This document shows positions 36,626 to 52,364 of a stretch of 64,000 bases of DNA, piece by piece. The position numbers were made by a program, and so were the translations under genes. This DNA comes from an uncultured bacterium (GTDB lineage Bacteria > Actinomycetota > Coriobacteriia > Coriobacteriales > Coriobacteriaceae): contig CAJMMD010000001.1 in assembly GCA_905214465.1 (NCBI GenBank), forward strand, positions 487 to 64,486, in the 5' to 3' direction. The notes under the pieces are model-generated. The model was not told the DNA's origin. It did not search any database and saw nothing but the letters and a program-made list of their open reading frames with translations. Position 1 is the first letter of the stretch, and each line of letters starts with the position of its first letter.

Positions 36626-36682
36626 TTAGCAAAACTTGCAAAAGTTAGCAAAACTTGCAAAAATTAGCAAAACCTGCAAAGG
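36626..36682. repeat. Three tandem 19-bp direct repeats (TTAGCAAAACYTGCAAARR) immediately upstream of the ATPase gene start
   Basis: ttagcaaaacttgcaaaag / ttagcaaaacttgcaaaaa / ttagcaaaacctgcaaagg, ending 8 nt before the ATG. Candidate iteron/operator array. Confidence 0.55.
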
Positions 36683-36689
36683 AGCTACC

Positions 36690-37784
36690 ATGGAGTACAG
36701 CAAGAACCCCTTTACCCCAACATTTGGAAGCGTCCCTCCCTTTCTAGCGGGTCGCGAGCATATCCTGCGCGACATCAACCGTGGCTTTATCAACGGCCCA
36801 GGAGATCCCAACCTGTCGACCATTTTTACTGGCGCAAGGGGAACGGGCAAGACGGCACTTCTCTCGCTCCTTTCAGAAACAGCGCTTGAACACGACTGGA
36901 TCGCAGCAAATGTCTCCGCCATGCCAGGCATGCTCGAAGATATTATCGAGCGAACCAAAGAAGCCGCAGATAGCTACCTCTCACAGCCTCACGCGCGCAT
37001 AAACGGTGTTCAAATTGGCCCAGTGGGCATCGATTGGACATACGCTCAAGAGGCTCAGGGCAACTGGCGCACGCGCATGAATGGCATCTTTAAGCAACTC
37101 GAAAAACATGACATCGGACTTCTCATCACCATCGATGAAGTCACCGTCGATCTCGAAGAAATGCTTCAATTTGCCTCTGTTTACCAGCACTTTGTACGCG
37201 AAGGTAAAAAAGTTGCCCTACTCATGGCAGGACTGCCCTACAAAGTATCGGCGTTGCTACGTAACGATTCCGTCTCGTTCCTCAGACGCTCCCAGTATCA
37301 TCAGCTGGGACGAATCACTGATGTTGAGATTGCAAATGCATTTCGTAAAACCATTGAAGCAGGAGGACGCTCAATCACGCCAGAAGCGCTCGAGGATGCC
37401 GTGAAGGCCGTCGACGGATTTCCCTACATGATGCAGCTCGTCGGATACCGCACTTGGGATGTTTCGGAAAACTCGCCCCAAATCAGTACATCCGATGTCC
37501 AGCAGGGTTCTCTGCTTGCCCGTATGGAGCTGCGCGATCGTATTCTCGAAACGACCTATCAGGAGCTTTCCGATAAAGACATTGAGTTTTTGCTCGCGAT
37601 GCTGCCCGATTCTGGCCCCAGCAGGGTCTCGGAGATAGCCAAACGCATGGGCGTCGCCAGCAACTACGCAAGCCAATACAAACGCCGCCTCCTCGAGGAC
37701 GGCGTTATCGGGGAACGTGGACGTGGCCTCGTCGGCTTCGACATCCCCGCGTTCAGGGAATTCTTGAACGAGAAGGCGTTTTAG
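36690..37784 (+). CDS. AAA-type ATPase (archaeal-ATPase/ORC-like family) with a C-terminal winged-helix domain
   Basis: The start is MEYSKNPFTPTFGSVPPFLAGRE. Walker A GARGTGKT, Walker B LLITIDEV, and a C-terminal wH region (SRVSEIAKRMGVASNYASQYKRRLLEDGVI). Confidence 0.7.
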   Translation: MEYSKNPFTPTFGSVPPFLAGREHILRDINRGFINGPGDPNLSTIFTGARGTGKTALLSLLSETALEHDWIAANVSAMPGMLEDIIERTKEAADSYLSQPHARINGVQIGPVGIDWTYAQEAQGNWRTRMNGIFKQLEKHDIGLLITIDEVTVDLEEMLQFASVYQHFVREGKKVALLMAGLPYKVSALLRNDSVSFLRRSQYHQLGRITDVEIANAFRKTIEAGGRSITPEALEDAVKAVDGFPYMMQLVGYRTWDVSENSPQISTSDVQQGSLLARMELRDRILETTYQELSDKDIEFLLAMLPDSGPSRVSEIAKRMGVASNYASQYKRRLLEDGVIGERGRGLVGFDIPAFREFLNEKAF

Positions 37785-37892: not shown

Positions 37893-38423
37893 TTAGGCGA
37901 GCTTGCGGGCGAGCTCGCGCACCTCTTCCAACTTAGGCGAGGAGGCCATGCTGTCGCGCTCGGTCATGCCGCTAATGGTGACAATGCCCTGGTCCTCCCA
38001 CTTGCAGTACGCGCAGGTTGACTTGTACATGGCAATCGCCGCATCATAGACACCCTCGCTGTGGCTATCGAGCAAAAGGGCCGTCTTGGTGAACGGGAAA
38101 CCCGTGGCACCGAAGGCGTACAGGCGGTCGATGGCGGTCTTTTCCTGCGCAGTGATGTCAAACCAGTAGATAGGCGAAGCGAAGACAACCATGTCGGTGT
38201 CTTTCAGCGACTCAATCACGTTGGCCATGTCATCCTTTTGCACGCAGACGCCCTCATGGGCGAAGCAGTACTGGCATCCCAAGCAGCCGGCGATCTTCTT
38301 GCTGGCAACGCGGATGACCTCGACCGTATGGCCGCCCTCACGCGCGGTCTCGGCAAACGCCTCGACCATGGTATCGGTATTGGCGCCCTTACGCGGGCTG
38401 CCGCTCAATACAACGATATTCAT
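37893..38423 (-). CDS. Flavodoxin-like fold NAD(P)H-dependent FMN reductase / iron-sulfur flavoprotein-like
   Basis: 176 aa. MNIVVLSGSPRKGANT and a Cys cluster CLGCQYC. Confidence 0.75.
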   Translation of the reverse strand: MNIVVLSGSPRKGANTDTMVEAFAETAREGGHTVEVIRVASKKIAGCLGCQYCFAHEGVCVQKDDMANVIESLKDTDMVVFASPIYWFDITAQEKTAIDRLYAFGATGFPFTKTALLLDSHSEGVYDAAIAMYKSTCAYCKWEDQGIVTISGMTERDSMASSPKLEEVRELARKLA

Positions 38424-38627
38424 AGGATTCCCTCTCCTTCATGCTGCAGGCGCGCAGCATTTTTTCTTGTAACCAAAACAAATGGGGTTAATCAATCGCC
38501 AGCAGGCCATATCTCTTGCTCAAGTTCCCTAAAGAAGCTCAAGGCGATTGCGATTGCCTTATACAACATCGAAAACCAAAGAGGGGCCATAGCAACGTCG
38601 CCTGCCTGAAATGGCACGCTGTCAAGA

Positions 38628-39182
38628 TCAACTACGGGGATCGCGACGAGCCGATACCGCCCGCATGCCCCCTTCGGAATAGGCGCTGAGCAGCTCCTGA
38701 GCGTGGGCAAACTCGGGCCCTCGCCTCCAACCGAGCAGGCGGTTGACCGCGAGATTTCCCTGGACGTTGTGGACAAAGAGCAGATAGGCGTCCTCGCGCG
38801 AAAGCCCAGTCTCCTCCATGATCGAGGGAACCATCTGCTCGGCGCCGCGCTCGACGACGCGCTGTGCCACCCGGGCGTACGCGTCGTCATCCGAGTAGAG
38901 CAGATAATAGTCATCGTTTGCCGGCGGACGCTGGCAGAGGGCGCCCGCCTCCGTTCCCTCGAGCGGCGGCACCGCCGCCAAGGCCTCGTCGATAAGCGCG
39001 TCGAGCAGGGCGAACTTGTCCTCGTAGTGCAGATAGAACGTGCCACGGTTGATATCGGCGCGTCGGCAGATATCCGCTACCGTCATCTTCGCGAAGCCGA
39101 CCTCGGCCAGCAGCGCGAAGAACGCCTCCCGTATGACCGAGAGTGTATAGCGTCGGCGACGATCGATCTTCCCCGCTTCCAT
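38628..39182 (-). CDS. TetR-family transcriptional regulator (copy 1)
   Basis: HTH TLSVIREAFFALLAEVGFAKMTVADICRRADINRGTFYLHY. The start is taken at MEAGKIDRRRR. It is divergent from the first SIR2-like gene. Confidence 0.8.
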   Translation of the reverse strand: MEAGKIDRRRRYTLSVIREAFFALLAEVGFAKMTVADICRRADINRGTFYLHYEDKFALLDALIDEALAAVPPLEGTEAGALCQRPPANDDYYLLYSDDDAYARVAQRVVERGAEQMVPSIMEETGLSREDAYLLFVHNVQGNLAVNRLLGWRRGPEFAHAQELLSAYSEGGMRAVSARRDPRS

Positions 39183-39285
39183 TACCCCTCCAATTGCAAC
39201 GCTCGACAATGCCCGGCAAACGCTCGTTTATCGACAGCAGGCCGAAGCTGTTCATTGCTCTTAAGCAAATCGACATGGATACTTT

Positions 39286-39305
39286 TTATAGACACCTGTT
39301 TATAA
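39286..39305. promoter_or_regulatory. Imperfect palindrome TTATAGACACCTGTTTATAA, candidate TetR operator in the divergent promoter
   Basis: TTATA-N-ACA..TGT-N-TATAA dyad. It is duplicated with the promoter region at 42579-42598. Confidence 0.5.
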
Positions 39306-39325
39306 TAGCTGAAAGAAGGTATCCA

Positions 39326-40291
39326 GTGACCCTGTACGAGCAGCTCGTTATCGAGCTCACCAACCAATCGTTTTCCCTTCAGGCCGCCTACCGCAGCGGC
39401 GGCACGCCCTATGAGCTGAGTGACCGCGAGCCCGAGCCCTACGACCAGCAAATCAGGGACTTCGCCCGCATGATCGAGGAAGCCGATTGCGTGCTGGTGG
39501 GCGGGGCCTCTGGGCTCTCCGCGGCGGGCGGCGGCGACTTCTATTACGAGGACAACGCAACCTATCGCAGGCATTTCGGCAAATTCGCCGAGCGTTACGG
39601 TTTCAAGGGCGCTTTCGAGGGGTCGTTCTACCGCTGGCCCACCGCCGAGGCGCGCTGGGGATACCTCGCCACCTTCCTCGACACCACGCTCAACGCCCCG
39701 CTGCGCAAGCCCTACAAGGACCTCGACGCCATTCTCGCCGAGAAGGATTTCTTCGTGCTCACCACCAACCAGGACACGCAGTTTGTGAAGCTCTACCCCT
39801 GGGAGAAGGTGGCAGAGATCCAAGGCGACCACCGCTTCTTTCAGTGCTCCCGCTGTTGCACCGACGCGGTGTGGGATGCGGTCGAGCCGGTCTCCAACAT
39901 GGTAGAGGCCATGGGAGACGGCCTTGAGGTTCCGACAGAGCTCGTGCCGCGCTGCCCGCACTGCGGGGCAGAGGCGTTCCCCTGGGTTCGCGGCTACGGC
40001 AACTTCCTGCAGGGCGAGCTCTACGAGGAGCAGTACCACAAGGTGTCCGACTGGCTCGACGCGCACGCGCGGCAGAGGATCCTTTTCCTCGAGCTGGGCG
40101 TGGGCCGCATGACGCCCGCGTTTATCCAGGAGCCGTTCTGGGCCCTCACGGCGCAGTTGTCGCAGGCTAGCTACATCGCCGTGAACAACAGGACGCAGTT
40201 TCTCCCCCGCGCGATCGAGGATTGGGGGCTCGCCGTTCGCGCCGACATCGCCGACGTGCTCGCCGACGTGCGCAAGACGCTGGGGAGGTAG
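39326..40291 (+). CDS. SIR2-like (sirtuin-fold) protein A
   Basis: GTG start after gaaagaagg. NAD-binding VLVGGASGLSAAGG (sirtuin GAGIS-like), TTNQDTQ (QNIDxLH-like), conserved His in QGDHRFFQCSRCC, second zinc pair PRCPHCG, and C-terminal ILFLELGVG. Confidence 0.65.
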   Translation: MTLYEQLVIELTNQSFSLQAAYRSGGTPYELSDREPEPYDQQIRDFARMIEEADCVLVGGASGLSAAGGGDFYYEDNATYRRHFGKFAERYGFKGAFEGSFYRWPTAEARWGYLATFLDTTLNAPLRKPYKDLDAILAEKDFFVLTTNQDTQFVKLYPWEKVAEIQGDHRFFQCSRCCTDAVWDAVEPVSNMVEAMGDGLEVPTELVPRCPHCGAEAFPWVRGYGNFLQGELYEEQYHKVSDWLDAHARQRILFLELGVGRMTPAFIQEPFWALTAQLSQASYIAVNNRTQFLPRAIEDWGLAVRADIADVLADVRKTLGR

Positions 40292-40294
40292 CAC

Positions 40295-40993
40295 ATGGAA
40301 ACGGTGAAAGCAGTTCGCATAGGCAGGGCGCTAGCCGAGGCGGATCTTGTCATCATCGGCGCCAGCAACGGGCTGGACATGGCAGAGGGGCTCAACCTCT
40401 TCTGCGCCGATGCTCATTTCCGAGAGGCGTACGGCGACCTCGCTCAGGCCGACGGCATCGGCTGCATACTGCAGGGGCTCGCCTCCCCGGATGCCAGCGT
40501 GCGAAGCCGATGGGTCGAGCGGTTCCATCAAAAGGAGTATGTCGAGTATGAGCCCAGCCCGCTCATGAACGGGCTGCGGCGTCTTACAGAGCACGCTGAC
40601 ACCTTCGTGATCACGTGCAATATCGACGGGCACTTCGTACGCGCAGGGTTCAACGAGAACCGCGTGCTCGAGACGGAGGGGAGCATACGCACGTCGATCG
40701 ACGAGCGGCGTCTCGCCCATCCAGACGCCCTCGCCACGGCCCAGCTCGAGGAGCTCGAGCGCCTTGTGCAAGCCCATCGCAACGGCAGGGTCGCCATCCT
40801 CGAACTTGGCGTGGGACTGCGCAACGGCATCATAAAGCACATGCTCGCCCAGATCGCGAACGTCTGCGAGCACGCCACCTACATCGTGTTCAACTACAGC
40901 CAGGCCATGGCGCCCGACGCCTCGTGCGAGACGATTCTCGTTGACGGCGATATGACCCCGGCTTTCGAGGAGATCGCCCGATGCCACCCCTAG
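40295..40993 (+). CDS. SIR2-like protein B (degenerate: lacks the Zn-ribbon cysteines and the conserved His)
   Basis: 232 aa. VIIGASNGLDMAEG, ITCNIDGHF and ILELGVG are retained, but there is no CxxC and no catalytic His. Confidence 0.6.
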   Translation: METVKAVRIGRALAEADLVIIGASNGLDMAEGLNLFCADAHFREAYGDLAQADGIGCILQGLASPDASVRSRWVERFHQKEYVEYEPSPLMNGLRRLTEHADTFVITCNIDGHFVRAGFNENRVLETEGSIRTSIDERRLAHPDALATAQLEELERLVQAHRNGRVAILELGVGLRNGIIKHMLAQIANVCEHATYIVFNYSQAMAPDASCETILVDGDMTPAFEEIARCHP

Positions 40994-41829
40994 AAAGAGA
41001 AGCGCGTAGGCTTCGAAGCCTTATCGACGATGCCGACGCCATCATCGTCGGCATCGGCTCGGGCATGTCGAGCGCCGCCGGGTTCAACCATTACAACCGC
41101 GCGGGCATGGCGCGCGCAGGAATGGCGGACTGGCAGCAAGCCTTTGGCTTCAAGAGCCTTTTCGACGGCTTCTACCACCTCTACCCCAGCCTCGAGCAGC
41201 AATGGGCCTACTACGCGCGATATATCGATTTCATGCTGCGCGAGCCGACCTCGCAGCCCTATCTCGACCTACGGTCCCTCATCGGCCATAAGGATTACTT
41301 CATCCTGAGCACCAATGTAGACACCCAAGTCGAGAAGACGTTTCCCACCGAGAGGATCTGCAACTATCAGGGAAGCTTCGCGCACCTTCAATGCAAGCAG
41401 CCATGCTGCGACGAGCTCTTCGAGGCGAGCCCCTACGTCGAGCGCATGCTCGCGGGCATGGCGGGGTTCGAGATCCGCAGCGAGGATGTCCCCCGATGCC
41501 CGCACTGCGGCTGGCAGCTCGTGCCGTGGGTGCGCGACGACACGTTTCTGCAGGGTGCGGCATGGCGCGAGAGCCTCGGACGATACGAGCGCTTCGTGCG
41601 CGAGCGCAGCGATCGCCGCGTGCTGTTGCTGGAGCTTGGCGTGGGCGAGATGACCCCCGGCATCATCACGCTCCCGTTCTGGAGCATGACCGCAAAGCTG
41701 CCGGATGCGCACCTTTTGAGCGTAAACATCTCGGGCGGCTCGGCTCCGCTGCAGCTTAGAAGCAAGGCAGGGGCGATCCAGGCCGATTTGGGCGCCCTGC
41801 TCTCGGTGGCGCGGGCAGGTGGCGAGTAA
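40981..41829 (+). CDS. SIR2-like protein C
   Basis: 282 aa. IIVGIGSGMSSAAG, STNVDTQ, GSFAHLQCKQPCC, PRCPHCG, LLLELGVG. 13-bp overlap with gene B. Confidence 0.65.
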   Translation: MPPLEREARRLRSLIDDADAIIVGIGSGMSSAAGFNHYNRAGMARAGMADWQQAFGFKSLFDGFYHLYPSLEQQWAYYARYIDFMLREPTSQPYLDLRSLIGHKDYFILSTNVDTQVEKTFPTERICNYQGSFAHLQCKQPCCDELFEASPYVERMLAGMAGFEIRSEDVPRCPHCGWQLVPWVRDDTFLQGAAWRESLGRYERFVRERSDRRVLLLELGVGEMTPGIITLPFWSMTAKLPDAHLLSVNISGGSAPLQLRSKAGAIQADLGALLSVARAGGE

Positions 41830-41912
41830 CGCGGAGCGGTAGACGCGCAATGAGGTTTTAGTCGCAGCCTCCGAACGAGAGGGCTCGGAGGCTGGTATTC
41901 CTGAATCGCAGG

Positions 41913-42473
41913 TCACGATGGGTTATCGGAATCGCGAAGAGCGGATACCGCCAGTAAGCCCCCTTCGGAATAGGCGTTGAGCAGCTCCTGGGCATGGGCG
42001 AACTCGGGACCTCGTCTCCAGCCGAGCAGGCGGTTGACGGCCAGATTGCCCTGGACGTTGTGGACGAAGAGCAGGAAGGCGTCTTCGCGTGAAAGCCCTG
42101 TTTTCTCCATGACCCAGGGAACCATCTGCTCCGCTCCGCGTTCTATGACGCGCTGGGCTACGCGAGCGTATGCGTCGCTGTCCGAATAAAGCAGGCGATA
42201 ATCGTCGTCTGCCGGCGGACGCTGGCAAAGCGTTGCCGATTCAACCCCCTCAAGCGGGGGAGCCGCTGCCAATGCCTCGTCGATAAGCGCATCGAGCAGC
42301 GCGTACTTATCCTCGTAATGCAGATAGAACGTTCCCCGGTTGATCTCGGCGCGGCGGCAGATGTCCGCCACCGTCATCTTCGCGAAGCCGACCTCGGCCA
42401 GCAGCGCGAAGAACGCCTCCTGTATGACCGAGAGGGTGTAGCGCCGCCGGTGGTCGATCTTGGTTTCTCCCAT
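41913..42473 (-). CDS. TetR-family transcriptional regulator (copy 2, ~85% identical to copy 1)
   Basis: The start is taken at MGETKIDHRRR. Near-identical HTH and C-terminal domain to 38628-39182. Confidence 0.8.
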   Translation of the reverse strand: MGETKIDHRRRYTLSVIQEAFFALLAEVGFAKMTVADICRRAEINRGTFYLHYEDKYALLDALIDEALAAAPPLEGVESATLCQRPPADDDYRLLYSDSDAYARVAQRVIERGAEQMVPWVMEKTGLSREDAFLLFVHNVQGNLAVNRLLGWRRGPEFAHAQELLNAYSEGGLLAVSALRDSDNPS

Positions 42474-42578
42474 CGCCTCTCCAATCTGAGTCGTTTGACA
42501 ATGTCCAGTAGCTGTTCGTTTATCGACAGGTGCACGCGTTTGTTCATTGCCCCTGAGAAAATCAACAAGGATACTGTT

Positions 42579-42598
42579 TATAGACACCTGTTTATTAT
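42579..42598. promoter_or_regulatory. Duplicate of the candidate TetR operator (TTATAGACACCTGTTTATTA)
   Basis: Part of the duplicated promoter segment; coordinates within 1-2 bp. Confidence 0.45.
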
Positions 42599-42616
42599 AG
42601 CTGAAAGGGAGTACGG

Positions 42617-42817
42617 ATGACCCTGTGCGAGAAACTCGGCATCGGGCTTGTCAGCCGATCGTTTTCCCATCGGTCCGTCTATCGAAACGGCGGCACGTCA
42701 TACGATTTGAGCGATTGCGAGCCTGCTGCTTGCAAGCAAGATATCGAGGCTTTTGCCCGCAAGGTGGAGGAGGCTGATTGCGTGTTTACGGGAGAGGCAG
42801 GTAGGCAGGCGTTATGA
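42617..42817 (+). pseudogene. Truncated SIR2-like paralog (N-terminal 66 codons only)
   Basis: MTLCEKLGIGLVSRSFSHRSVYRNGGTSYDLSDCEPAACKQDIEAFARKVEEADCVFTGEAG parallels residues 1-65 of SIR2-like A and then terminates where the lower-GC radical-SAM insertion begins. Confidence 0.5.
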
Positions 42818-43503
42818 GCATCTGCATCAAAAATCAGATTCAGAATATGAATATCGTCATCGGCTGCACGGTGGGGTGTCCATATTGCTATGCCCGTAAC
42901 AATGTGAAACGTTGGCATATGATTGACGACTTCGCTGATCCTGCGTTCTTCCCGAGCAAGCTCAAGATGATGGAAAAGAAACGCCCGCAGAACTTTCTCC
43001 TTACCGGCATGAGCGATCTCTCCGGGTGGAAGCTGGAATGGCGAGACGAGGTATTTGCAAAGATCCATGAGAATCCACGGCATCAGTTCCTGTTCCTGAC
43101 CAAGAGACCCGATTTGCTGGATTTAGATACCGACCTGGAAAACGCATGGTTCGGCGTTACGGTGACGAGAAAAGCGGAGCTGTGGCGTATCGACGCCCTT
43201 CGGAAAAACCTCAAAGCAAATCACTTCTTCGTTACTTTTGAGCCGCTATTCGACGATCCCGGTACGGTCGACCTTTCCGGAATCAACTGGATCGTCGTCG
43301 GTACCATGACCGGGGCGCAGAGCAGGAAGGTTCATACGGAACCGGAGTGGGCATGGTCTTTGACGGACCAGGCGCACGCGCTTGGCATTCCAATGTTTAT
43401 GAAGGAAGACCTCGTCTCTGTCATAGGGGACGAAAACATGATTCAGGAATTACCGGAAGAATTCGAAAGAGTGCTGGAGGTGCAGAGAACATGGCGGAAG
43501 TGA
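42814..43503 (+). CDS. Radical SAM protein (CxxxCxxC; SplB/DUF5131-like small form)
   Basis: IGCTVGCPYCYARN cluster near the N-terminus; 229 aa; lower GC than the flanks. Confidence 0.55.
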   Translation: MSICIKNQIQNMNIVIGCTVGCPYCYARNNVKRWHMIDDFADPAFFPSKLKMMEKKRPQNFLLTGMSDLSGWKLEWRDEVFAKIHENPRHQFLFLTKRPDLLDLDTDLENAWFGVTVTRKAELWRIDALRKNLKANHFFVTFEPLFDDPGTVDLSGINWIVVGTMTGAQSRKVHTEPEWAWSLTDQAHALGIPMFMKEDLVSVIGDENMIQELPEEFERVLEVQRTWRK

Positions 43504-44399
43504 TCGATAGAATCCTCATCAATGAGGTGGAAGCAAAGAACATCATGACCAAGTCCAGCCTGCCGGTAGGCGGCTACTCGGTCAATCCCTATGTAGGCTG
43601 CACGCATGCCTGCAAGTATTGCTATGCCTCCTTTATGAAGCGCTTTACCGGACACAAGGAGGAATGGGGCACCTTTCTTGATGTGAAGCATTGGCCGGAA
43701 ATCAAGAATCCGAAGAAATACGCTGGACAGCGGGTGGTTATCGGTTCTGTGACGGATGGCTACAATCCACAGGAGGAGCGATTCGGGAATACCAGGAAAC
43801 TCCTGGAGCAGCTGATTGGCAGCGATGCAGATATTCTGATCTGCACAAAGTCCGATCTTGTGGTACGGGATATCGATCTGCTGAAGAAGCTTGGACGAGT
43901 GACCGTTTCATGGTCGATCAACACGCTGGATGAGAACTTCAAGAACGATATGGACTCCGCGTCGAGCATCGAGCGTCGTATCGCTGCTATGAAGCAGGTG
44001 TATGACGAAGGTATCCGTACGGTCTGCTTCGTGTCCCCGGTATTTCCCGGCATCACGGATTTTGAGATGATTTTTGAGCGAGTAAAGGATCGGTGCGATT
44101 TGTTTTGGCTCGAAAATCTCAATCTTCGGGGTGGTTTCAAAAAAACGATCCTGGATTATATCGCCGAGAAACATCCCGATCTCGTACCGCTTTACGATGA
44201 GATCTATAACAAGCGCAACCGTAGCTATTTTGAAGCGCTTGAAGAAAAAGCCGAGGAAATGGCCAAGAAGTACGATTGCCCCTTTGTGGACAACGAAATG
44301 CCTTATGGCAGAGTCCCCCAGGGGCATCCGGTGATCGTGGACTACTTCTATCACGAGGAAGTCCGAGGGTCGGATAATAGCGGAAAAAGAAATCGTTAA
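43491..44399 (+). CDS. Radical SAM DNA-repair-photolyase-like protein (SplB/COG1533-like)
   Basis: The start is MAEVIDRILINEVEAK. VGCTHACKYCYA cluster; 302 aa; 13-nt overlap with the upstream radical-SAM gene. Confidence 0.65.
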   Translation: MAEVIDRILINEVEAKNIMTKSSLPVGGYSVNPYVGCTHACKYCYASFMKRFTGHKEEWGTFLDVKHWPEIKNPKKYAGQRVVIGSVTDGYNPQEERFGNTRKLLEQLIGSDADILICTKSDLVVRDIDLLKKLGRVTVSWSINTLDENFKNDMDSASSIERRIAAMKQVYDEGIRTVCFVSPVFPGITDFEMIFERVKDRCDLFWLENLNLRGGFKKTILDYIAEKHPDLVPLYDEIYNKRNRSYFEALEEKAEEMAKKYDCPFVDNEMPYGRVPQGHPVIVDYFYHEEVRGSDNSGKRNR

Positions 44400-44629
44400 A
44401 CGGAAACCGACGACGATTCGCTCGAGCGATTAGCGTCCACGCGTGGCTTCTGCCGATTGGCGCAACGGGCGACGGATTAAGGGATCGCTCGGGCGGATGA
44501 TCCCGCTGCAGTACAGGCGGTCGCTCAATTTAGCGGCATGAGCGTTTTCGCACGGGAAACCAGTATCCCCTGTGCCGAGTTTAATCGTAGCAAATACAAT
44601 GGGCACTGAGCATCAATCGAAAGTAGTCG

Positions 44630-46871: not shown

Positions 46872-47996
46872 TTAATCAACGGACACACCCCAAGGAAGAA
46901 CGTCTTTTCCCCTCCCGTTCGTCTTTCCCTTCCACGTTGCGAACAGGTATCTGTCGAACTCGAAGAACTCTGTTTCTCTATAGGGATGCTGTCTGTCATA
47001 GCTGCCAATATTCGTTATATATGCATGGTCGACAGACCTCAGTTCATAGTCTCTACATCTCAGCGACGGAGAGAGCTGTTTGTACAGGGCATAGTTGAAG
47101 GAATCATCTATTTTCATATGTTTAATGAGCGGAGAGTAGTCCTTGTGCTGATCATAATTAACAAATAGAGCGAGGTTGACGGCGCAGCGTGCGAATACGT
47201 CGTCTTCCACGCGCCGGGAATAATAGGCGACCCCGTCAAGACCATGCTTCTTACACGCCATCATTATTGCCTGGGGAACGATGTACTCAGACTTGAACGT
47301 TCTGTCAGCTTCGTCGATTCTGTACGAGGTCGCTATCATGAGCATGAATAGTTTAAGCCAGCAATGAACGCGCCCCTCATCGAAACCGTCCAAGCCGCCG
47401 AAATCTCTCACATTGATTGCCAAGTTAAGTATTTTCTGCGTGCCGTCTAAAACTACCGGTGAGCCGTTGAAATCGATTTCCGGTGGAAATCCCGTCTCTA
47501 TCCAGCATCCATACGAAGAATTTGCAAGATAATAGGCCGGGCTGCCGGGGATACTAAACCTGTAGCTTCCGGTCTTAGATCTCAGGCTCTTCGGCAAATG
47601 CAACATCTCTTTTGCCGCATAGGCGCTAGAAGGACTCCCTGTTCTCGACCGAAAGAATTGTATCTCCTGGCTCCTGTTCCCCGGAAAGGCCCAACTCTCA
47701 TCTAGCTTTGCAACCGCAAAAGGATCGGAACGAACTTCTGAAACCAAATTCCTGATGATTGTGTTGCTTTTTGCAATATCGGCCTTGTAGTAACTACGCA
47801 GGGCTTCGAGGATTTTATTTCGATATTTCTTTATTATTGCCAGGCTGCCATCATCCGCACCGGCCTTTTCCGCCTGGTTGAGCACAATGTTGTATTTCTC
47901 CATAAGGCGGGAATAGTAGTCATTGTCCAGTTTGACAACAAACGGAGCATATAGGTCATTACAGATGAAATCATTCAACAACCAAGATAACCCCAT
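46872..47996 (-). CDS. RES-domain protein (NAD+-targeting toxin family) with N- and C-terminal extensions
   Basis: RES motifs: GSYRFSIPGSPAYYLANSSYGCWIE (Arg..Glu) and GLDGVAYYSRRVEDDVFARCAVNLALF (Ser). Low-GC coding. The start is taken at MGLSW; the track ORF extends to 48302 into GC-rich DNA, so the true start is uncertain. Confidence 0.6.
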   Translation of the reverse strand: MGLSWLLNDFICNDLYAPFVVKLDNDYYSRLMEKYNIVLNQAEKAGADDGSLAIIKKYRNKILEALRSYYKADIAKSNTIIRNLVSEVRSDPFAVAKLDESWAFPGNRSQEIQFFRSRTGSPSSAYAAKEMLHLPKSLRSKTGSYRFSIPGSPAYYLANSSYGCWIETGFPPEIDFNGSPVVLDGTQKILNLAINVRDFGGLDGFDEGRVHCWLKLFMLMIATSYRIDEADRTFKSEYIVPQAIMMACKKHGLDGVAYYSRRVEDDVFARCAVNLALFVNYDQHKDYSPLIKHMKIDDSFNYALYKQLSPSLRCRDYELRSVDHAYITNIGSYDRQHPYRETEFFEFDRYLFATWKGKTNGRGKDVLPWGVSVD

Positions 47997-48351
47997 CTTT
48001 GCACCATCCTCAATTAGATCCCAGTTGGTCAGCACATCCTTAATGTCGAATATACATCCTGTACTATCCGAAGCAAAACGAACTGGTCGGTTTCGAATAG
48101 CGAATGCCGGGCACACTACACAAGAACGCCCCAAGCTATTACGTTTAGGAGGAAAGCCGCGCTGTATATGGATGCAAACTCGGCAAACCAGGAAGCATGC
48201 AAACTGTGTGCTCCCCACCCTGACGCCCTCTTTCAAGTCGACTGGGCGCAGAAAAAAGATCCCGCAGCGCCCCAAAGCCATCAGTGCTCCCGAATAATGC
48301 AAACACTCCGTTAATGGACCGTATTATTGCGGTTTAGCAAGGAATGCCCCC

Positions 48352-48789
48352 TTAACCGCCAAAATCTACCTTCCGCCGAACCCGCGCTTCCAGTCGAGGT
48401 ACTCCTCCTCGGAGATCTCCCCGGAGTCCCGTCTCGCGCGCATCGCGGCCCATGCCGCTGCAGCATATGAGAACCACGAGGTCGCGCGCGACCCAGATCC
48501 CGTCGACGTAGAGCACGCGGTGGAGCTCGCCGTCGGGGACGGGCATGGGCCAGACCTCCCAGAACTCGGCCGTCCTGCGCCTGAAGGAGCGCCCGCCGCC
48601 CGGCATCATGGCCTGCGAGTCCTTCGAGAGGAGCTACCCGAGGAACTCCCCGAGCCTTGTCGCCGTGTCGTCGTACCTCACCGTCGTCGACGCACCGCAG
48701 GCCGTGCACCTCCACCGCTGGGACCCCGATGAGGTCCTGCCGTTGCGCTTGGTCCGACCGCCGCAGTAGGGGCAATAAACGGCCTTCAT
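48352..48789 (-). mobile_element. Truncated IS transposase remnant (zinc-ribbon N-terminus plus frameshifted second frame)
   Basis: Frame 1 gives MKAVYCPYCGGRTKRNGRTSSGSQRWRCTACGASTTV...EFLG*. A +1 shifted frame continues LLSKDSQAMMPGG...FWEVWPMPVPDGELHRVLYVDGIWVARDLVVLICCSG. This is an IS1/IS1595-like arrangement. It is GC-rich and incomplete. Confidence 0.5.
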
Positions 48790-49617: not shown

Positions 49618-50751
49618 ATGCAACAACAAGTTGCTCGATCTCTCAGTAAAACCAAAGAACACCAGAGTGAAACTATCCTGCCGTCAACTAACTATCAGGT
49701 ATTTGAAATGACGTATAGATTTATCTCGACAGAAAGAGGGACTCCCAGTGGCAACAGGGCTGAAACCTGTGCTCTGTTGCATATGATGTGTTTTGCCCCT
49801 GAACGCGATGAAATCGATTTGTTCGCCATTGACTGCTTTAATGACGTTACAGGAATGGACAACTCCTGTAATACCCTTCATGATGTGCAGTCAAAAGGCG
49901 AAACAAAAATAACCCCAGCAAAGCTGGGCGAGTATCTAGCTACGCTTTTTGAAAATAGAGCAAGCGAATTCTCAAAGTATTTCGACACGCTTACCCTGTT
50001 TGTCGGGGGCGTATCCCCAACCACACTTGAGAATCCGACGCTAACGGAATTTCGATTTCAACAGCTGAAGCCAAAATCGCAGGCGAGCGTCCGTGAGCAT
50101 CTCATCGAGGCGTGCAAGAAGAGGCACAACGACATTCCCGACGGCCTGATCGATGACGACGCCATTGACGACTTCTTGAGCTGTGTTAGATTCGTTGTAG
50201 CAAAGAAGGACGAGACCGAGTACATCCGCGCTCTTGCGCACAACTCTTCCGCTCTTTTAACGGACAAGCGGACCCTTCTTGGTATTTTTGGAGCGATACG
50301 CGACCAACAGTCATCGCTCAAAAACCGTGCCGGAATTGCCGGAAGAGCCATAGACAGGCCTGACGCTGTCATGGATTTCGGACGCACCATGTCAACCCGT
50401 CAGATTCGTCTGTTGGTAATTCAGCGCCTCCTCAATATGAGTTTTCTGACAGAAGAATCTCCCGACAGTTTCCGGCCTTATCTCAATTCGCTTCCTCCGG
50501 AAATGCGAATTGAAGACGTGGAGGAAGACTGCAGGAATGAACTTTGCCTTCAGTATTTTGACAAAAACAACCTTGCTGCTTTCTGGCATCTTCTGGACGA
50601 AATCGTAGACATCATTCAGGATGACCCCAAAGCCGATATACAGCAGATTTATAGCAAGATCGGCGAAGGCACCTTAGCCTCCTGCACTCAGCTGACCAGA
50701 AGATCTCACCTCTACTTTATTGCGACCATTAAGGATGGACTTCGCCCATGA
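49618..50751 (+). CDS. Hypothetical protein (377 aa), candidate LmuA-like effector partner of the downstream SMC-like ATPase
   Basis: Low-GC. No recognisable domain. A possible PD-(D/E)xK-like arrangement (AETCALL ... IDLFAID ... LHDVQSK) near the N-terminus is speculative. Its stop overlaps the next gene's ATG (ATGA). Confidence 0.55.
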   Translation: MQQQVARSLSKTKEHQSETILPSTNYQVFEMTYRFISTERGTPSGNRAETCALLHMMCFAPERDEIDLFAIDCFNDVTGMDNSCNTLHDVQSKGETKITPAKLGEYLATLFENRASEFSKYFDTLTLFVGGVSPTTLENPTLTEFRFQQLKPKSQASVREHLIEACKKRHNDIPDGLIDDDAIDDFLSCVRFVVAKKDETEYIRALAHNSSALLTDKRTLLGIFGAIRDQQSSLKNRAGIAGRAIDRPDAVMDFGRTMSTRQIRLLVIQRLLNMSFLTEESPDSFRPYLNSLPPEMRIEDVEEDCRNELCLQYFDKNNLAAFWHLLDEIVDIIQDDPKADIQQIYSKIGEGTLASCTQLTRRSHLYFIATIKDGLRP

Positions 50752-52364
50752 TTAGCATCAAAACCGTTTACATAGGCAACGAGAACGAATCCTACATCCA
50801 GGATGATTTCGCAATCGCTGGCGTGAACATCATTTCTAGCGATGAAAACCATGTTGGTAAGACCATCGTTATGCAGGCAATAATGTATGCGCTTGGATCT
50901 GAAGCACGCTTCCCTCCAAGCTTCAAAAGCAACGAATATGTCTTTATTGTTGACCTCGAAGTTGATGGACGCGGACTTTCCATACTAAGAAACAGGGATT
51001 CGTTTGTCGTGCTGGATGGAGGAACGATTATCCCAATCGAAAGCTCGGGTGACTTTGACGTTTTCTGGAACGACCATATCTCACCTTTACCCACCATTAC
51101 TAAAGATGGTAGTCAGACAATAGTGGGACTCCCTCTCTACACTCAAATTGCTTTCGTTCCTCAGGCCGGTAGAAGCACTGCCCGTACCAGTACAAGCTAT
51201 TTCAACAAAGACGACTTTAAGGAAATGGTCTATGCCTTAAAGGGCTTAGATGCTCGTACCTTGGATAAGAAATCTATTGCAGACCTCAAGAACAAGAGGA
51301 GCGCTCTTAAAACCAGAAGAGAAGAGCTTGCCAAGCAGGCATCGACACTACGTAAAATTGGAACCTCGCTTGCCGTGGTTAGCCCAACAGCAAATAGAGA
51401 AGAGACTGCTCGTTTCATCGAGCGACTCAATTTCCTAAAGAATTCGATAGTCAGCCTCACGAATGAGCGCAACCATGCTCATACGCGCCGAGCCAAGAAT
51501 CAGGCAGTAAAGAAGGAGCTGAATTCCTTAAATCGGGAAATCAAGGTCGGCTCCGTGATTTGCATGAACTGTGGATCGGATGAGATTGGTTACAAGCTTC
51601 CAGGATCAGATTATGTGTTTGACATAACGACGAGTGAAATGAGGTCGCAAATCCTTCTGAGCGTCCAACGTAAGATCGACGCATATCAAAAAGAGATCGA
51701 GGAGCTCGACCTGGAGATTCGCGAACTCCAAAATCAATTCAATAAGCTTGCGGATTCTAGGGAAATAACCCTGGAGGATATTTTTGCTGCACGTCAGGAC
51801 TATGCCGACCTTGAAGCAATTGATCGAGAGATAACCAATATCTCGGACCAAATCGACGGTATCGACGAACAGCTCAAAGAGGCAAAAACAATCGATAAAG
51901 AGCTTAGCGAGGACAGAGCGGATTTCAATGCGGCCCTGCTAGCCACTATGAATGACGTGCGCCGCACAATCAATGAAAGTGATTCCGTCGAAGATTACAC
52001 GGACCTTTTTACTACCAACAACAGCCCCTATATCGGAAGCGAAGCTACCGAGTTCTTTCTTGCAAAAACCTATTCACTTGCCAAGCACATACATCACGGC
52101 TTACCTATTGTTATTGACTCTTTTCGCGCCGAAGAGCTATCGACAGGAAGGGAGGAACGTGTGCTCCCCCTGTTTATCGATCTCCCTAATCAGGTTATTT
52201 TCAGTGCTACCTTGAAGGGTGAAGAAGTTGGAAAATATCACGGACGTGAAGGAATTAATAGTATTGAATATATAGGCTATACGCAAAATAAGCTTCTCTC
52301 CAATCGTGACAACGAGAGGTTTTTGTCGAAAGTCGCTGATTTCGGCATCAAGCTCAATGGGTAG
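50748..52364 (+). CDS. SMC/Rad50-like ABC-type ATPase with a central coiled coil and CxxC hook (LmuB-like)
   Basis: N-terminal P-loop SDENHVGKTIVMQAIMYALG, ~300 aa of heptad-rich coiled coil with ICMNCG at its midpoint, and a C-terminal Walker-B/D-loop-like LPIVIDSFRAEELS. 538 aa. Confidence 0.65.
   Translation: MISIKTVYIGNENESYIQDDFAIAGVNIISSDENHVGKTIVMQAIMYALGSEARFPPSFKSNEYVFIVDLEVDGRGLSILRNRDSFVVLDGGTIIPIESSGDFDVFWNDHISPLPTITKDGSQTIVGLPLYTQIAFVPQAGRSTARTSTSYFNKDDFKEMVYALKGLDARTLDKKSIADLKNKRSALKTRREELAKQASTLRKIGTSLAVVSPTANREETARFIERLNFLKNSIVSLTNERNHAHTRRAKNQAVKKELNSLNREIKVGSVICMNCGSDEIGYKLPGSDYVFDITTSEMRSQILLSVQRKIDAYQKEIEELDLEIRELQNQFNKLADSREITLEDIFAARQDYADLEAIDREITNISDQIDGIDEQLKEAKTIDKELSEDRADFNAALLATMNDVRRTINESDSVEDYTDLFTTNNSPYIGSEATEFFLAKTYSLAKHIHHGLPIVIDSFRAEELSTGREERVLPLFIDLPNQVIFSATLKGEEVGKYHGREGINSIEYIGYTQNKLLSNRDNERFLSKVADFGIKLNG

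Follow-up and report, generated by a model that had tools for sequence, protein, structure and literature searches.

The stretch of DNA analysed here, called the window below, is 64,000 nucleotides (nt) of contig CAJMMD010000001.1 from an uncultured bacterium of the Coriobacteriaceae, and the subject of this work is a tandem array of three sirtuin-fold genes within it. In the list of open reading frames (ORFs), the array comprises a TetR-family gene on the minus strand (TetR1), the co-directional genes A, B and C on the plus strand, a convergent TetR gene on the minus strand (TetR2) and a 66-codon ORF on the plus strand. We hold with moderate confidence that the locus is a TetR-repressed operon of three class M-like (SirTM-like) sirtuin paralogs on the chromosome of a gut bacterium of the Collinsella aerofaciens group. 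The features are as follows, with protein lengths in amino acids (aa) and intergenic lengths in base pairs (bp).

38628–39182, minus strand: TetR1, TetR-family regulator of 184 aa from ATG, divergent from the sirtuin operon (PF00440, E 1.1e-11)
39183–39325: control region 1, 143 bp between TetR1 and A
39326–40291, plus strand: gene A, type-1 (T1) SirTM-like sirtuin of 321 aa, with the Asn-Gln-Arg (NQR) trio, a Cys4 zinc module and an N-terminal extension of ~40 aa
40295–40993, plus strand: gene B, type-3 (T3, "N-E-x" or NEX) SirTM-like paralog of 232 aa
40981–41829, plus strand: gene C, type-2 (T2) SirTM-like sirtuin of 282 aa, with the NQR trio and a Cys4 zinc module
41913–42473, minus strand: TetR2, paralog of TetR1 and predicted regulator of a second, broken operon copy (PF00440, E 2.7e-11)
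42474–42616: control region 2, a duplicated 143-bp region with a second palindrome, TTATAGACACCTGTTTATTA, at 42578–42597
42617–42817, plus strand: stub A', a 66-codon remnant of a second type-1 gene, ending at the Gly-rich loop for nicotinamide adenine dinucleotide (NAD)
42814–44399, plus strand: radical S-adenosylmethionine (SAM) mobile pair (pair A 42814–43503, pair B 43491–44399)
37893–38423, minus strand: flavin mononucleotide (FMN)-dependent NAD(P)H oxidoreductase (FMN_red/Flavodoxin_2; PF03358, E 3.6e-23), downstream of TetR1 on the same strand

The ORF of TetR1 is open to 39209, and metagenome contigs are annotated with the 184-aa form. The start of gene A is most likely the GTG at 39326, because the orthologues start there with MSFYEDLV or MNFYDDLV and the truncated copy has an ATG at this point; the 360-aa form of A called in public contigs would extend through the control region. 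The original prediction for this DNA, made from the letters alone, gave ORFs of 322, 232 and 282 aa. The lengths of B and C agree with it, and A is 321 aa long, its 322 codons including the stop. The start of B lies 3 nt from the stop of A, and B and C overlap by 13 nt; because of this close spacing, the three genes look translationally coupled. The FMN reductase occupies the same position in Collinsella loci and, as a neighbour, is possibly part of the same stress regulon.

The identity of A, B and C rests on a PDB sequence search and a fold search, because Pfam, NCBIfam and PADLOC gave no usable family. Neither A nor C matched the Pfam families SIR2 (PF02146) and SIR2_2 even at E ≤ 10, B reached 15.7 bits with SIR2 (cut-off 24), and PADLOC returned zero matches for the three proteins. 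In NCBIfam, the CobB-like models gave 17–22 bits for the array proteins against cut-offs of 243–252 bits. The profile check proposed with the original prediction thus reached no threshold, and homology was established through the solved SirTM structures instead. By phmmer, SpySirTM of Streptococcus pyogenes (5A3A) was matched by A at E 1.6e-35, by C at 4.5e-38 and by B at 5.8e-7; A and C also matched the fungal macrodomain-SirTM fusion Mfs1 (8RSN) at E about 1e-19, and other sirtuins all had E > 0.1. The AlphaFold (AF2) model of A has a predicted local distance difference test score (pLDDT) of 91.4, and its top Foldseek match in the PDB is 5A3A (TM 0.88, root-mean-square deviation 2.4 Å). The model of B (pLDDT 91.1) has the same top match, with a TMq of 0.76. 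The predicted layout of three sirtuin-fold paralogs beside a divergent TetR gene therefore agrees with both the gene order and the homology to solved SirTM structures.

In SirTM, the trio Asn118/Gln137/Arg192 is needed for ADP-ribosylation (Rack et al. 2015, PMC4518038). A MAFFT alignment with SpySirTM shows that the trio is intact in A and C: the Asn, the Gln (in IQGD in A and YQGS in C) and the Arg, which lies in a PWVR motif. The Gln occupies the position of the catalytic His of other sirtuins, as in all class M sirtuins. A and C also have the Cys4 zinc module, which B has lost by deletion. A conserved His had been claimed for A and C together with a CxxC...CxxC ribbon missing from B. The ribbon was borne out, but the His was not: A and C have Gln at this position and B has Glu, and the His residues close by have no homology to the catalytic one. 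The N-x-D and LELGVG motifs were seen in all three proteins, as was the Gly-rich loop, whose actual form is GxxSGxS or GxGSGxS rather than the GxGxSGxS first given. By sequence, predicted fold and catalytic residues, A, B and C are placed in the class M lineage, B as a non-canonical member.

These residues bear directly on the possibility that the paralogs are ordinary CobB-like deacylases with a pseudo-enzyme regulator, one of the two options named at the outset. Public annotation does label relatives "NAD-dependent protein deacetylase, SIR2 family", and weak CobB matches of 17–22 bits exist; however, such scores are far under the cut-offs, Pfam SIR2 is not matched, and the catalytic His is replaced by Gln. 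In the class M enzymes SpySirTM and SauSirTM, which share this Gln, deacetylase, desuccinylase and delipoylase activities were absent and a Gln-to-His mutant was dead (PMC4518038). In the accessible text of Olesen et al. (2018, bioRxiv 10.1101/252379), the class M protein LBA1649 removed 0 of 15 acyl groups. Nor do the orthologous loci contain CobB-like deacetylases scattered singly, the arrangement offered as a refutation of the array; the orthologues stand in tandem arrays. We regard the deacylase alternative as highly improbable, and the public label of these proteins is probably wrong.

The control region between TetR1 and A contains two conserved boxes, TCGTTTATCGACAG (39224–39237) and TGTTCATTGC (39249–39258), followed by an imperfect palindrome, TTATAGACA-CC-TGTTTATAA, at 39286–39305, which overlaps a TATAAT at 39301–39306. 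A sequence resembling a ribosome-binding site, GAAAGAAGG, lies at 39311–39319. In comparison with control region 2, from which it has diverged, the best-conserved blocks are TCGTTTATCGACAG, TGTTCATTGC and GGATACTnTTTATAGACACCTGTTTAT, the last of which contains the palindrome. Across 80 Collinsella loci, conservation is at least 90% in the palindrome arms, and the centre varies. TetR1 thus combines an N-terminal helix-turn-helix domain (PF00440), a divergent layout and a palindrome at the TATAAT of the candidate promoter, as is expected of a TetR regulator with a divergent target operon. The palindromic candidate operator that had been predicted was found in both control regions. TetR1 and TetR2 are identical at 157 of 181 aa (87%; DNA ~82%), close to the ~85% first estimated, and the recurrence of the palindrome at 42578–42597 accords with the duplicated promoter/operator.

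Gene B differs considerably from A and C. Its catalytic Gln is changed to Glu (TEGS), its Asn is kept, and ~50 aa are deleted, including the region of Arg192 and the zinc module. In T3 proteins generally, the Gln is always replaced by Glu, and the place of the Arg is taken by Ala, Gly, Ser or Glu. In this large family (2278 matches at E < 1e-5), the near-invariant elements are IGASNGLS, TSNxxxHF, ExEG, the Cys4 module and LExGxGxRNxxIK. B keeps the T3 signature (IGASNGL, TxNxxxHF, ExEG and LELGVGxRNxxIK), and only the zinc module is lost. Within Collinsella, the ratio of nonsynonymous to synonymous substitution rates (dN/dS) is 0.26 for A, 0.28 for B and 0.19 for C; for the neighbours it is 0.09 (TetR1), 0.09 (FMN reductase) and 0.02 (parC). 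Purifying selection acts on all three sirtuin genes and is no weaker on B than on A. Its family signature, its dN/dS and its confident AF2 model suggest that B is functional. The term "catalytically degenerate" used for B is therefore correct in that the protein is catalytically atypical, but it overstates the case for a member of a constrained N-E-x subfamily under purifying selection like that on A.

Two further observations concern these genes. The mean synonymous rate (dS) of gene A is 0.04 in loci L020–L099, two to five times below the values of B, C, TetR1, the FMN reductase and parC (0.08–0.20), which hints at a recent sweep or recombination at A. Protein P0292 is a 552-aa in-frame T3-T1 fusion whose T1 part has no N-terminal extension; it is encoded on a single 2.6-kb contig (NCBI) and could be a natural fusion or an artefact of a metagenome-assembled genome (MAG). 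The 510-aa protein P0267 was set aside as an assembly duplication artefact.

The array is a stable part of the Collinsella chromosome. The type-1 protein occurs at 97–100% identity in 80 Collinsella/Coriobacteriaceae genomes, always beside parE-parC and the FMN reductase, and the same parC-adjacent site in 80 of the 80 genomes fetched bears out the prediction that the array is native to the lineage. B or C is split or frameshifted in 4 of the 80 (L041, L043, L060 and L074), and TetR2 is split or internally deleted in about a dozen (including L045, L059 and L092); in both cases the cause is sequencing error or real inactivation.

For the distribution outside Collinsella, the genome-contig scan was dominated by near-identical Collinsella and the metagenome-contig scan by one Clostridia species; taxonomic breadth was taken from contigs encoding homologues and from plasmid records. 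Distant homologues of C in gut contigs lie in three-gene arrays of 325, 290 and 278 aa, divergent from an Rrf2 regulator. All-against-all BLAST resolved three orthologous types, T1 corresponding to A (62–63% identity), T2 to C (46–52%) and T3 to B (29–31%); T1 orthologues in Gemmiger, Choladousia and Desulfovibrio are 61–68% identical to A. T1-T2-T3 tandem arrays occur in Oscillospiraceae-like gut contigs, and the full trio is also found in Gemmiger sp. An50. The forms seen behind an Rrf2 gene are T1-T2-T3, T1-T3 and longer arrays. Pairs of a T1 or T1-like gene with T3 are found in Blautia, Ca. Cellulosilyticum and the Clostridia contig L186, and T1+T3 pairs on Paenibacillus and Mesobacillus plasmids and in Desulfovibrio sp. 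An276.

A census of the fetched non-Collinsella loci counted 98 with T3. Every T3 with upstream sequence available follows an NQR-type paralog, and no macrodomain gene adjoins the NQR+NEX arrays of this census. Canonical SirTM-macrodomain pairs were recovered separately, from Roseburia, Treponema, Subdoligranulum and Niallia. In a distance tree, the A, C and B types form three clades and the macrodomain-linked SirTM proteins a separate fourth. As judged from these sequence comparisons, the NQR+NEX paralog array is a widespread module across phyla and is common in gut bacteria. The array had been called unusual, but it is no one-off: NQR+NEX arrays recur in Clostridia, on Bacilli plasmids and in Desulfovibrio. 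We found no description of macrodomain-less multi-paralog sirtuin arrays in the searchable literature.

The neighbours of these arrays provide clues to function. Downstream of the pair and on its strand, Ca. Cellulosilyticum has an HD-nicotinamidase fusion, a nicotinate phosphoribosyltransferase (NAPRTase) and an NAD synthase, and Paenibacillus and Mesobacillus have an HD protein, NAPRTase and an isochorismatase-family hydrolase. In these three taxa, the downstream NAPRTase/nicotinamidase set is the Preiss-Handler route from nicotinamide. The presence of NAD salvage in the same operon argues that the paralogs cleave NAD+ and free nicotinamide at a rate worth recycling. An HD-domain protein of ~180 aa, for which no relative was found by sequence in NCBIfam or the PDB, directly follows T3 in 10 loci of several species. 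Its positions are given here.

HD protein: L200 9701–10237; L191 3526–4104; L194 6780–7358; L184 7850–8400; also in L164, L125, L166 and L179

The regulators, divergent from or upstream of the arrays, are of the TetR, Rrf2 or HxlR families. Recurrent neighbours are FMN and flavin reductases, old yellow enzyme (OYE), an aldo-keto reductase with Fe-S domains, a CGGC protein, and CMD/cupin proteins with MerR. The published SirTM system is likewise tied to oxidative stress and to OYE/LLM oxidoreductases (PMC4518038).

Based on the results presented above, we propose that the array is an inducible, NAD-consuming ADP-ribosyl-transfer module in which A and C would be the writers and B a non-canonical partner, a proposal drawn from sequence and structural models to which we give about an even chance. 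TetR1 would bind the palindrome overlapping the -10 element and keep A-B-C off, and a small-molecule or redox/electrophile signal would release it. Once expressed, A and C may use NAD+ to move ADP-ribose onto an acceptor, with release of nicotinamide. B appears to retain the Rossmann half that binds NAD or ADP-ribose, together with invariant polar residues of its own; as it has neither the catalytic Gln and Arg nor the substrate-side zinc module, it is probably a partner subunit and not a canonical transferase, and it may bind NAD or ADP-ribose, tuning or completing the reaction. The module as proposed would contain no macrodomain eraser. Of the two options in the original prediction, a "NAD-consuming stress/defence module" or deacylases, the NAD-consuming stress module is the better; the defence part of that option did not hold up, and the deacylase option did not either.

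The acceptor might also be a small molecule. According to this alternative, a serious rival that we still consider rather unlikely, the paralogs use NAD+ to act on a xenobiotic, antibiotic or metabolite, by ADP-ribosylation in the manner of Arr, the rifampicin ADP-ribosyltransferase, or in another way, and the same compound is the regulator ligand; in other taxa, the nucleotide formed would be a substrate of the HD hydrolase. Regulators of the TetR and HxlR families usually respond to the compound on which the neighbouring genes act. The neighbouring flavin, FMN and nitro-type reductases would suit such a role, as would the HD phosphohydrolase that recurs right after T3 in 10 loci. The operon encodes no protein target, unlike SirTM operons with GcvH-L, and the module adjoins mobile cassettes that are accompanied elsewhere by a resistance gene (the chloramphenicol acetyltransferase gene CAT beside the radical SAM pair). 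On the other hand, A and C retain the zinc module, which in sirtuins shapes the cleft for protein substrates, and their closest characterised homologue is a protein ADP-ribosyltransferase. We know of no sirtuin-fold enzyme that modifies small molecules.

Downstream of C, the window holds the remains of a second copy of the operon. Stub A' shares 52% aa identity with the N-terminus of A (71% nt identity over 181 nt), and it is present wherever TetR2 is present in Collinsella loci. Its stop codon overlaps the ATG of pair A (ATGA). The two regions form one colinear direct repeat with a 3291-nt period (38621–39507 against 41912–42798), which spans from 7 nt past the TetR stop through the 143-bp region to the first ~180 nt of A, and the period of 3291 nt is that of one TetR-A-B-C unit. 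The fourth copy predicted as truncated is thus indeed a truncated duplicate, its stub lying inside this repeat.

The two proteins of the radical SAM pair score above the NCBIfam equivalog cut-offs for TIGR04471 (406 bits, cut-off 355) and TIGR04470 (598 bits, cut-off 410). The pair is 87.6% identical at the nt level to a Lachnospira eligens megaplasmid over exactly 42814–44399, from start to stop codon, and the local G+C content is 0.52 compared with ~0.62 in the array. In L. eligens and on Selenomonas plasmids, the pair has a dedicated MarR regulator upstream; no MarR regulator lies upstream of the pair in the window, where the stub and the TetR2 control region directly precede it. On this evidence, the pair is judged to be horizontally acquired, having replaced the interior of the second operon copy. 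Because its ATG overlaps the stub stop, it is placed for the TetR2-controlled sirtuin promoter, by which it is apparently driven.

In the usual Collinsella order, C is followed by TetR2, the stub, pair A, pair B, a C' fragment and a second FMN reductase, and some genomes are without everything between C and the second FMN reductase. The C' fragment corresponds to residues ~48–280 of C at 87–95% identity. In the type represented by the window, a GNAT gene stands where others have the C' fragment; colinearity between the window and L049 ends at 44628. The 3291-nt period is common to all repeat blocks, and the offset of C' fits the replacement of ~1.6 kb by ~1.8 kb, which argues for a whole-operon tandem duplication. 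In the simplest history, the whole operon would have been duplicated in tandem, and the radical SAM pair would later have replaced the interior of copy 2 (from codon 67 of A' to codon ~47 of C'). An interruption by the pair of one hybrid fourth gene was rejected, because the shared period and the position of C' favour a whole-operon duplicate. Longer C-like proteins (P0004, P0005, P0017, P0028 and P0056) were considered as intact fourth copies and proved to be read-throughs, frameshifts or chimeras; many contigs end inside C, which fits an assembly break at the C/C' repeat.

The radical SAM pair is also found within about 1–4 kb of SirTM-like arrays in several Clostridia, usually in the order HxlR (divergent), flavin reductase, pair A, pair B. 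The loci concerned are listed here.

Radical SAM pair adjacency: L101, L103, L128, L131, L132, L136, L140, L159, L165, L167, L180–L183, L188 and L200; window 42814–44399

In Blautia, pair B and a remnant of pair A lie directly upstream of a T1-like gene. In L. eligens, a macrodomain gene lies 2.3 kb from the pair, and there are NUDIX and RNA 2'-phosphotransferase genes in the vicinity; the pair copies of Bacteroides and of the Selenomonas plasmid have no such ADP-ribose neighbours. Possible reasons for the adjacency are a stress island common to both, a preference in insertion, or a functional tie to ADP-ribose metabolism.

The broken copy raises the question of whether the whole locus is decaying, that is, a relic without current function in Collinsella. 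B has lost ~50 aa, the second operon copy is broken and its surroundings are rearranged, B or C is frameshifted in 4 of 80 genomes, and the dN/dS values lie above those of the neighbours. Nevertheless, the great majority of genomes carry intact A, B and C genes, the dN/dS of 0.19–0.28 is well below 1, the regulator and the operator candidate are conserved, and the model of B is well folded. We think it very unlikely that the locus is a relic.

The DNA around the array in the window and in other Collinsella is variable. In locus L004 (5060–7417), a GmrSD-family gene (PADLOC HEC-06/SspE-like) and a DUF6508 gene lie between the homologues of the FMN reductase and TetR1; this insertion indicates that co-transcription of the two is not obligatory and marks their junction as an insertion hot spot. 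The window itself contains a PADLOC candidate defence system, PDC-M22A/B, at 49618–52364 (399 and 592 bits), whose B protein is LmuB/SMC-like; these genes lie in a low-G+C stretch (0.46–0.49, 47–52 kb) that looks like an acquired island. A 476-aa RES-domain protein is encoded at 46872–48302 on the minus strand, about 5 kb from the sirtuin array, and is preceded by a 154-aa ORF without a match (48311–48775, minus strand). RES domains occur in NAD+-degrading toxins. Between parC and the FMN reductase, a P-loop ATPase gene of 364 aa (36636–37784, likely start 36690) encodes a C-terminal winged-helix-like region and has weak matches to AAA_22, AAA_16 and PtuA; it is present in some Collinsella genomes and absent from others.

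Several observations weigh against the array being an inducible ADP-ribosyl-transfer module. A strict sigma-70 scan found no promoter in the control region, and the promoter/terminator scan was uninformative. The Pfam family Macro was not found on called genes within 10 kb on either side in 8 contigs, so that the chemistry may differ from that of the published systems, and tblastn with three macrodomain proteins returned nothing in the 64-kb window or in Collinsella loci L001–L008 and L020–L099. The Pfam families of GcvH-L and LplA2 were likewise not found within 10 kb on either side. HD or NAD-salvage genes do not stand beside the array in Collinsella, and the window has no homologue of the HD protein. 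The dN/dS values of 0.2–0.3 in the sirtuin genes are relaxed relative to the neighbours (0.02–0.09), and fusion P0292, as one short MAG contig, was rejected as Rosetta-stone evidence for a T1-T3 interaction. Finally, the variable Collinsella flanks, with GmrSD (L004), the RES protein and PDC-M22A/B, would suit a defence locus.

A defence role would make the array an anti-phage or abortive-infection NADase like ThsA, DSR or SIR2-HerA, whose induction depletes NAD+. Besides the flanks, the sirtuin fold and NAD use point in this direction, and several paralogs could mean diversification. However, no PADLOC or SIR2_2 match and no sensor or effector partner was found for the array. The comparison to defence SIR2s made in the original prediction fails at the same point, since there is no TIR, HerA or prokaryotic Argonaute (pAgo) partner and the neighbours are TetR and an FMN reductase. 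The array is fixed at one chromosomal site in 80 of the 80 Collinsella genomes fetched, T1 is 61–68% identical across phyla, unlike fast-evolving defence genes, and the catalytic residues are those of the transferase class. Control is by TetR, Rrf2 or HxlR, and NAD salvage in the operon (three taxa) is the opposite of NAD depletion. We therefore give a defence function little probability and retain the transfer module as the preferred interpretation.

The current definition of class M sirtuins rests on linkage to a macrodomain eraser; the one known target is lipoylated GcvH-L, in a few pathogens. With the arrays described here, a large sister group of SirTM-like enzymes would join them, from commensals that abound in the human gut (Collinsella, Blautia, Gemmiger, other Oscillospiraceae-like contigs and Desulfovibrio). 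Its members occur without a macrodomain and invariably in sets of paralogs, one of them a conserved Gln-to-Glu variant, and nicotinamide salvage and redox-type regulators often accompany them. They offer a route to new SirTM targets or chemistries and are a natural experiment on a sirtuin active site with Glu for Gln or His. A bolder idea, which we consider doubtful, is that the NQR+NEX arrays are a self-contained, sirtuin-only ADP-ribosylation system in which the N-E-x paralog replaces the macrodomain as hydrolase or "reader", or acts as a second step with the HD hydrolase, making a new nucleotide product under redox/electrophile stress. The second-step version would turn NAD+ into that new product. 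A functional tie to the radical SAM pair, which repeatedly lies next to these arrays and to other ADP-ribose genes, would be a further possibility.

A related arrangement was seen in locus L192 (3148–7119; Lactiplantibacillus plantarum plasmid p1), where a macrodomain-less class M-like gene with the NQR trio and no Cys4 module stands beside a TetR/AcrR gene, with IS30 between them and a gene for a 439-aa cupin-domain protein after it. This is a different partner set, found on conjugative Lactobacillaceae plasmids.

Compared with known systems, the defence SIR2s (ThsA, DSR1/2, SIR2-HerA and SIR2-pAgo) share the sirtuin fold and, as predicted for the array, NAD+ as substrate, and ThsA and DSR2 are weak structural neighbours (E ~1e-5); they have a His active site and sensor or partner domains, whereas the array proteins have Gln or Glu and neither kind of partner, and are chromosomally fixed and regulator-controlled. 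CobB-type deacylases coupled to the nicotinamidase PncA resemble some array relatives in that a sirtuin fold is tied to nicotinamide recycling, but they use a catalytic His, which is missing here, where the scores are also below cut-off and the arrangement is multi-paralog. The accessible text of Olesen et al. (2018, bioRxiv 10.1101/252379) names two motif groups, "NEX" and "XFP", for BLAST hits to class M from lactobacilli. B and its orthologues match the NEX group, with N-E-[A/G/S/E] at the three catalytic positions; that text gives it without gene context, NQR pairing or function, and Collinsella B is also without the zinc module.

The closest system by sequence and fold is the SirTM/Zn-macrodomain system of S. 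pyogenes and Staphylococcus aureus (PMC4518038, PMC11490716), with which A and C share the trio and the Cys4 module and the arrays share a redox/flavoenzyme neighbourhood. That system is known from pathogens and has one sirtuin and a macrodomain; here, there are 2–3 paralogs with an obligatory N-E-x member, no macrodomain, GcvH-L or LplA2 was found nearby, control is by TetR, Rrf2 or HxlR, and the host is a commensal actinobacterium. The minimal SirTM-macrodomain pairs of the Roseburia sp. 831b plasmid and Treponema saccharophilum pTS1 are alike in that a SirTM-type gene abuts its partner, with Rrf2 and flavoenzymes. In those pairs the partner is a protein-ADP-ribose hydrolase, whereas in the NQR+NEX arrays the partner position is occupied by the N-E-x paralog.

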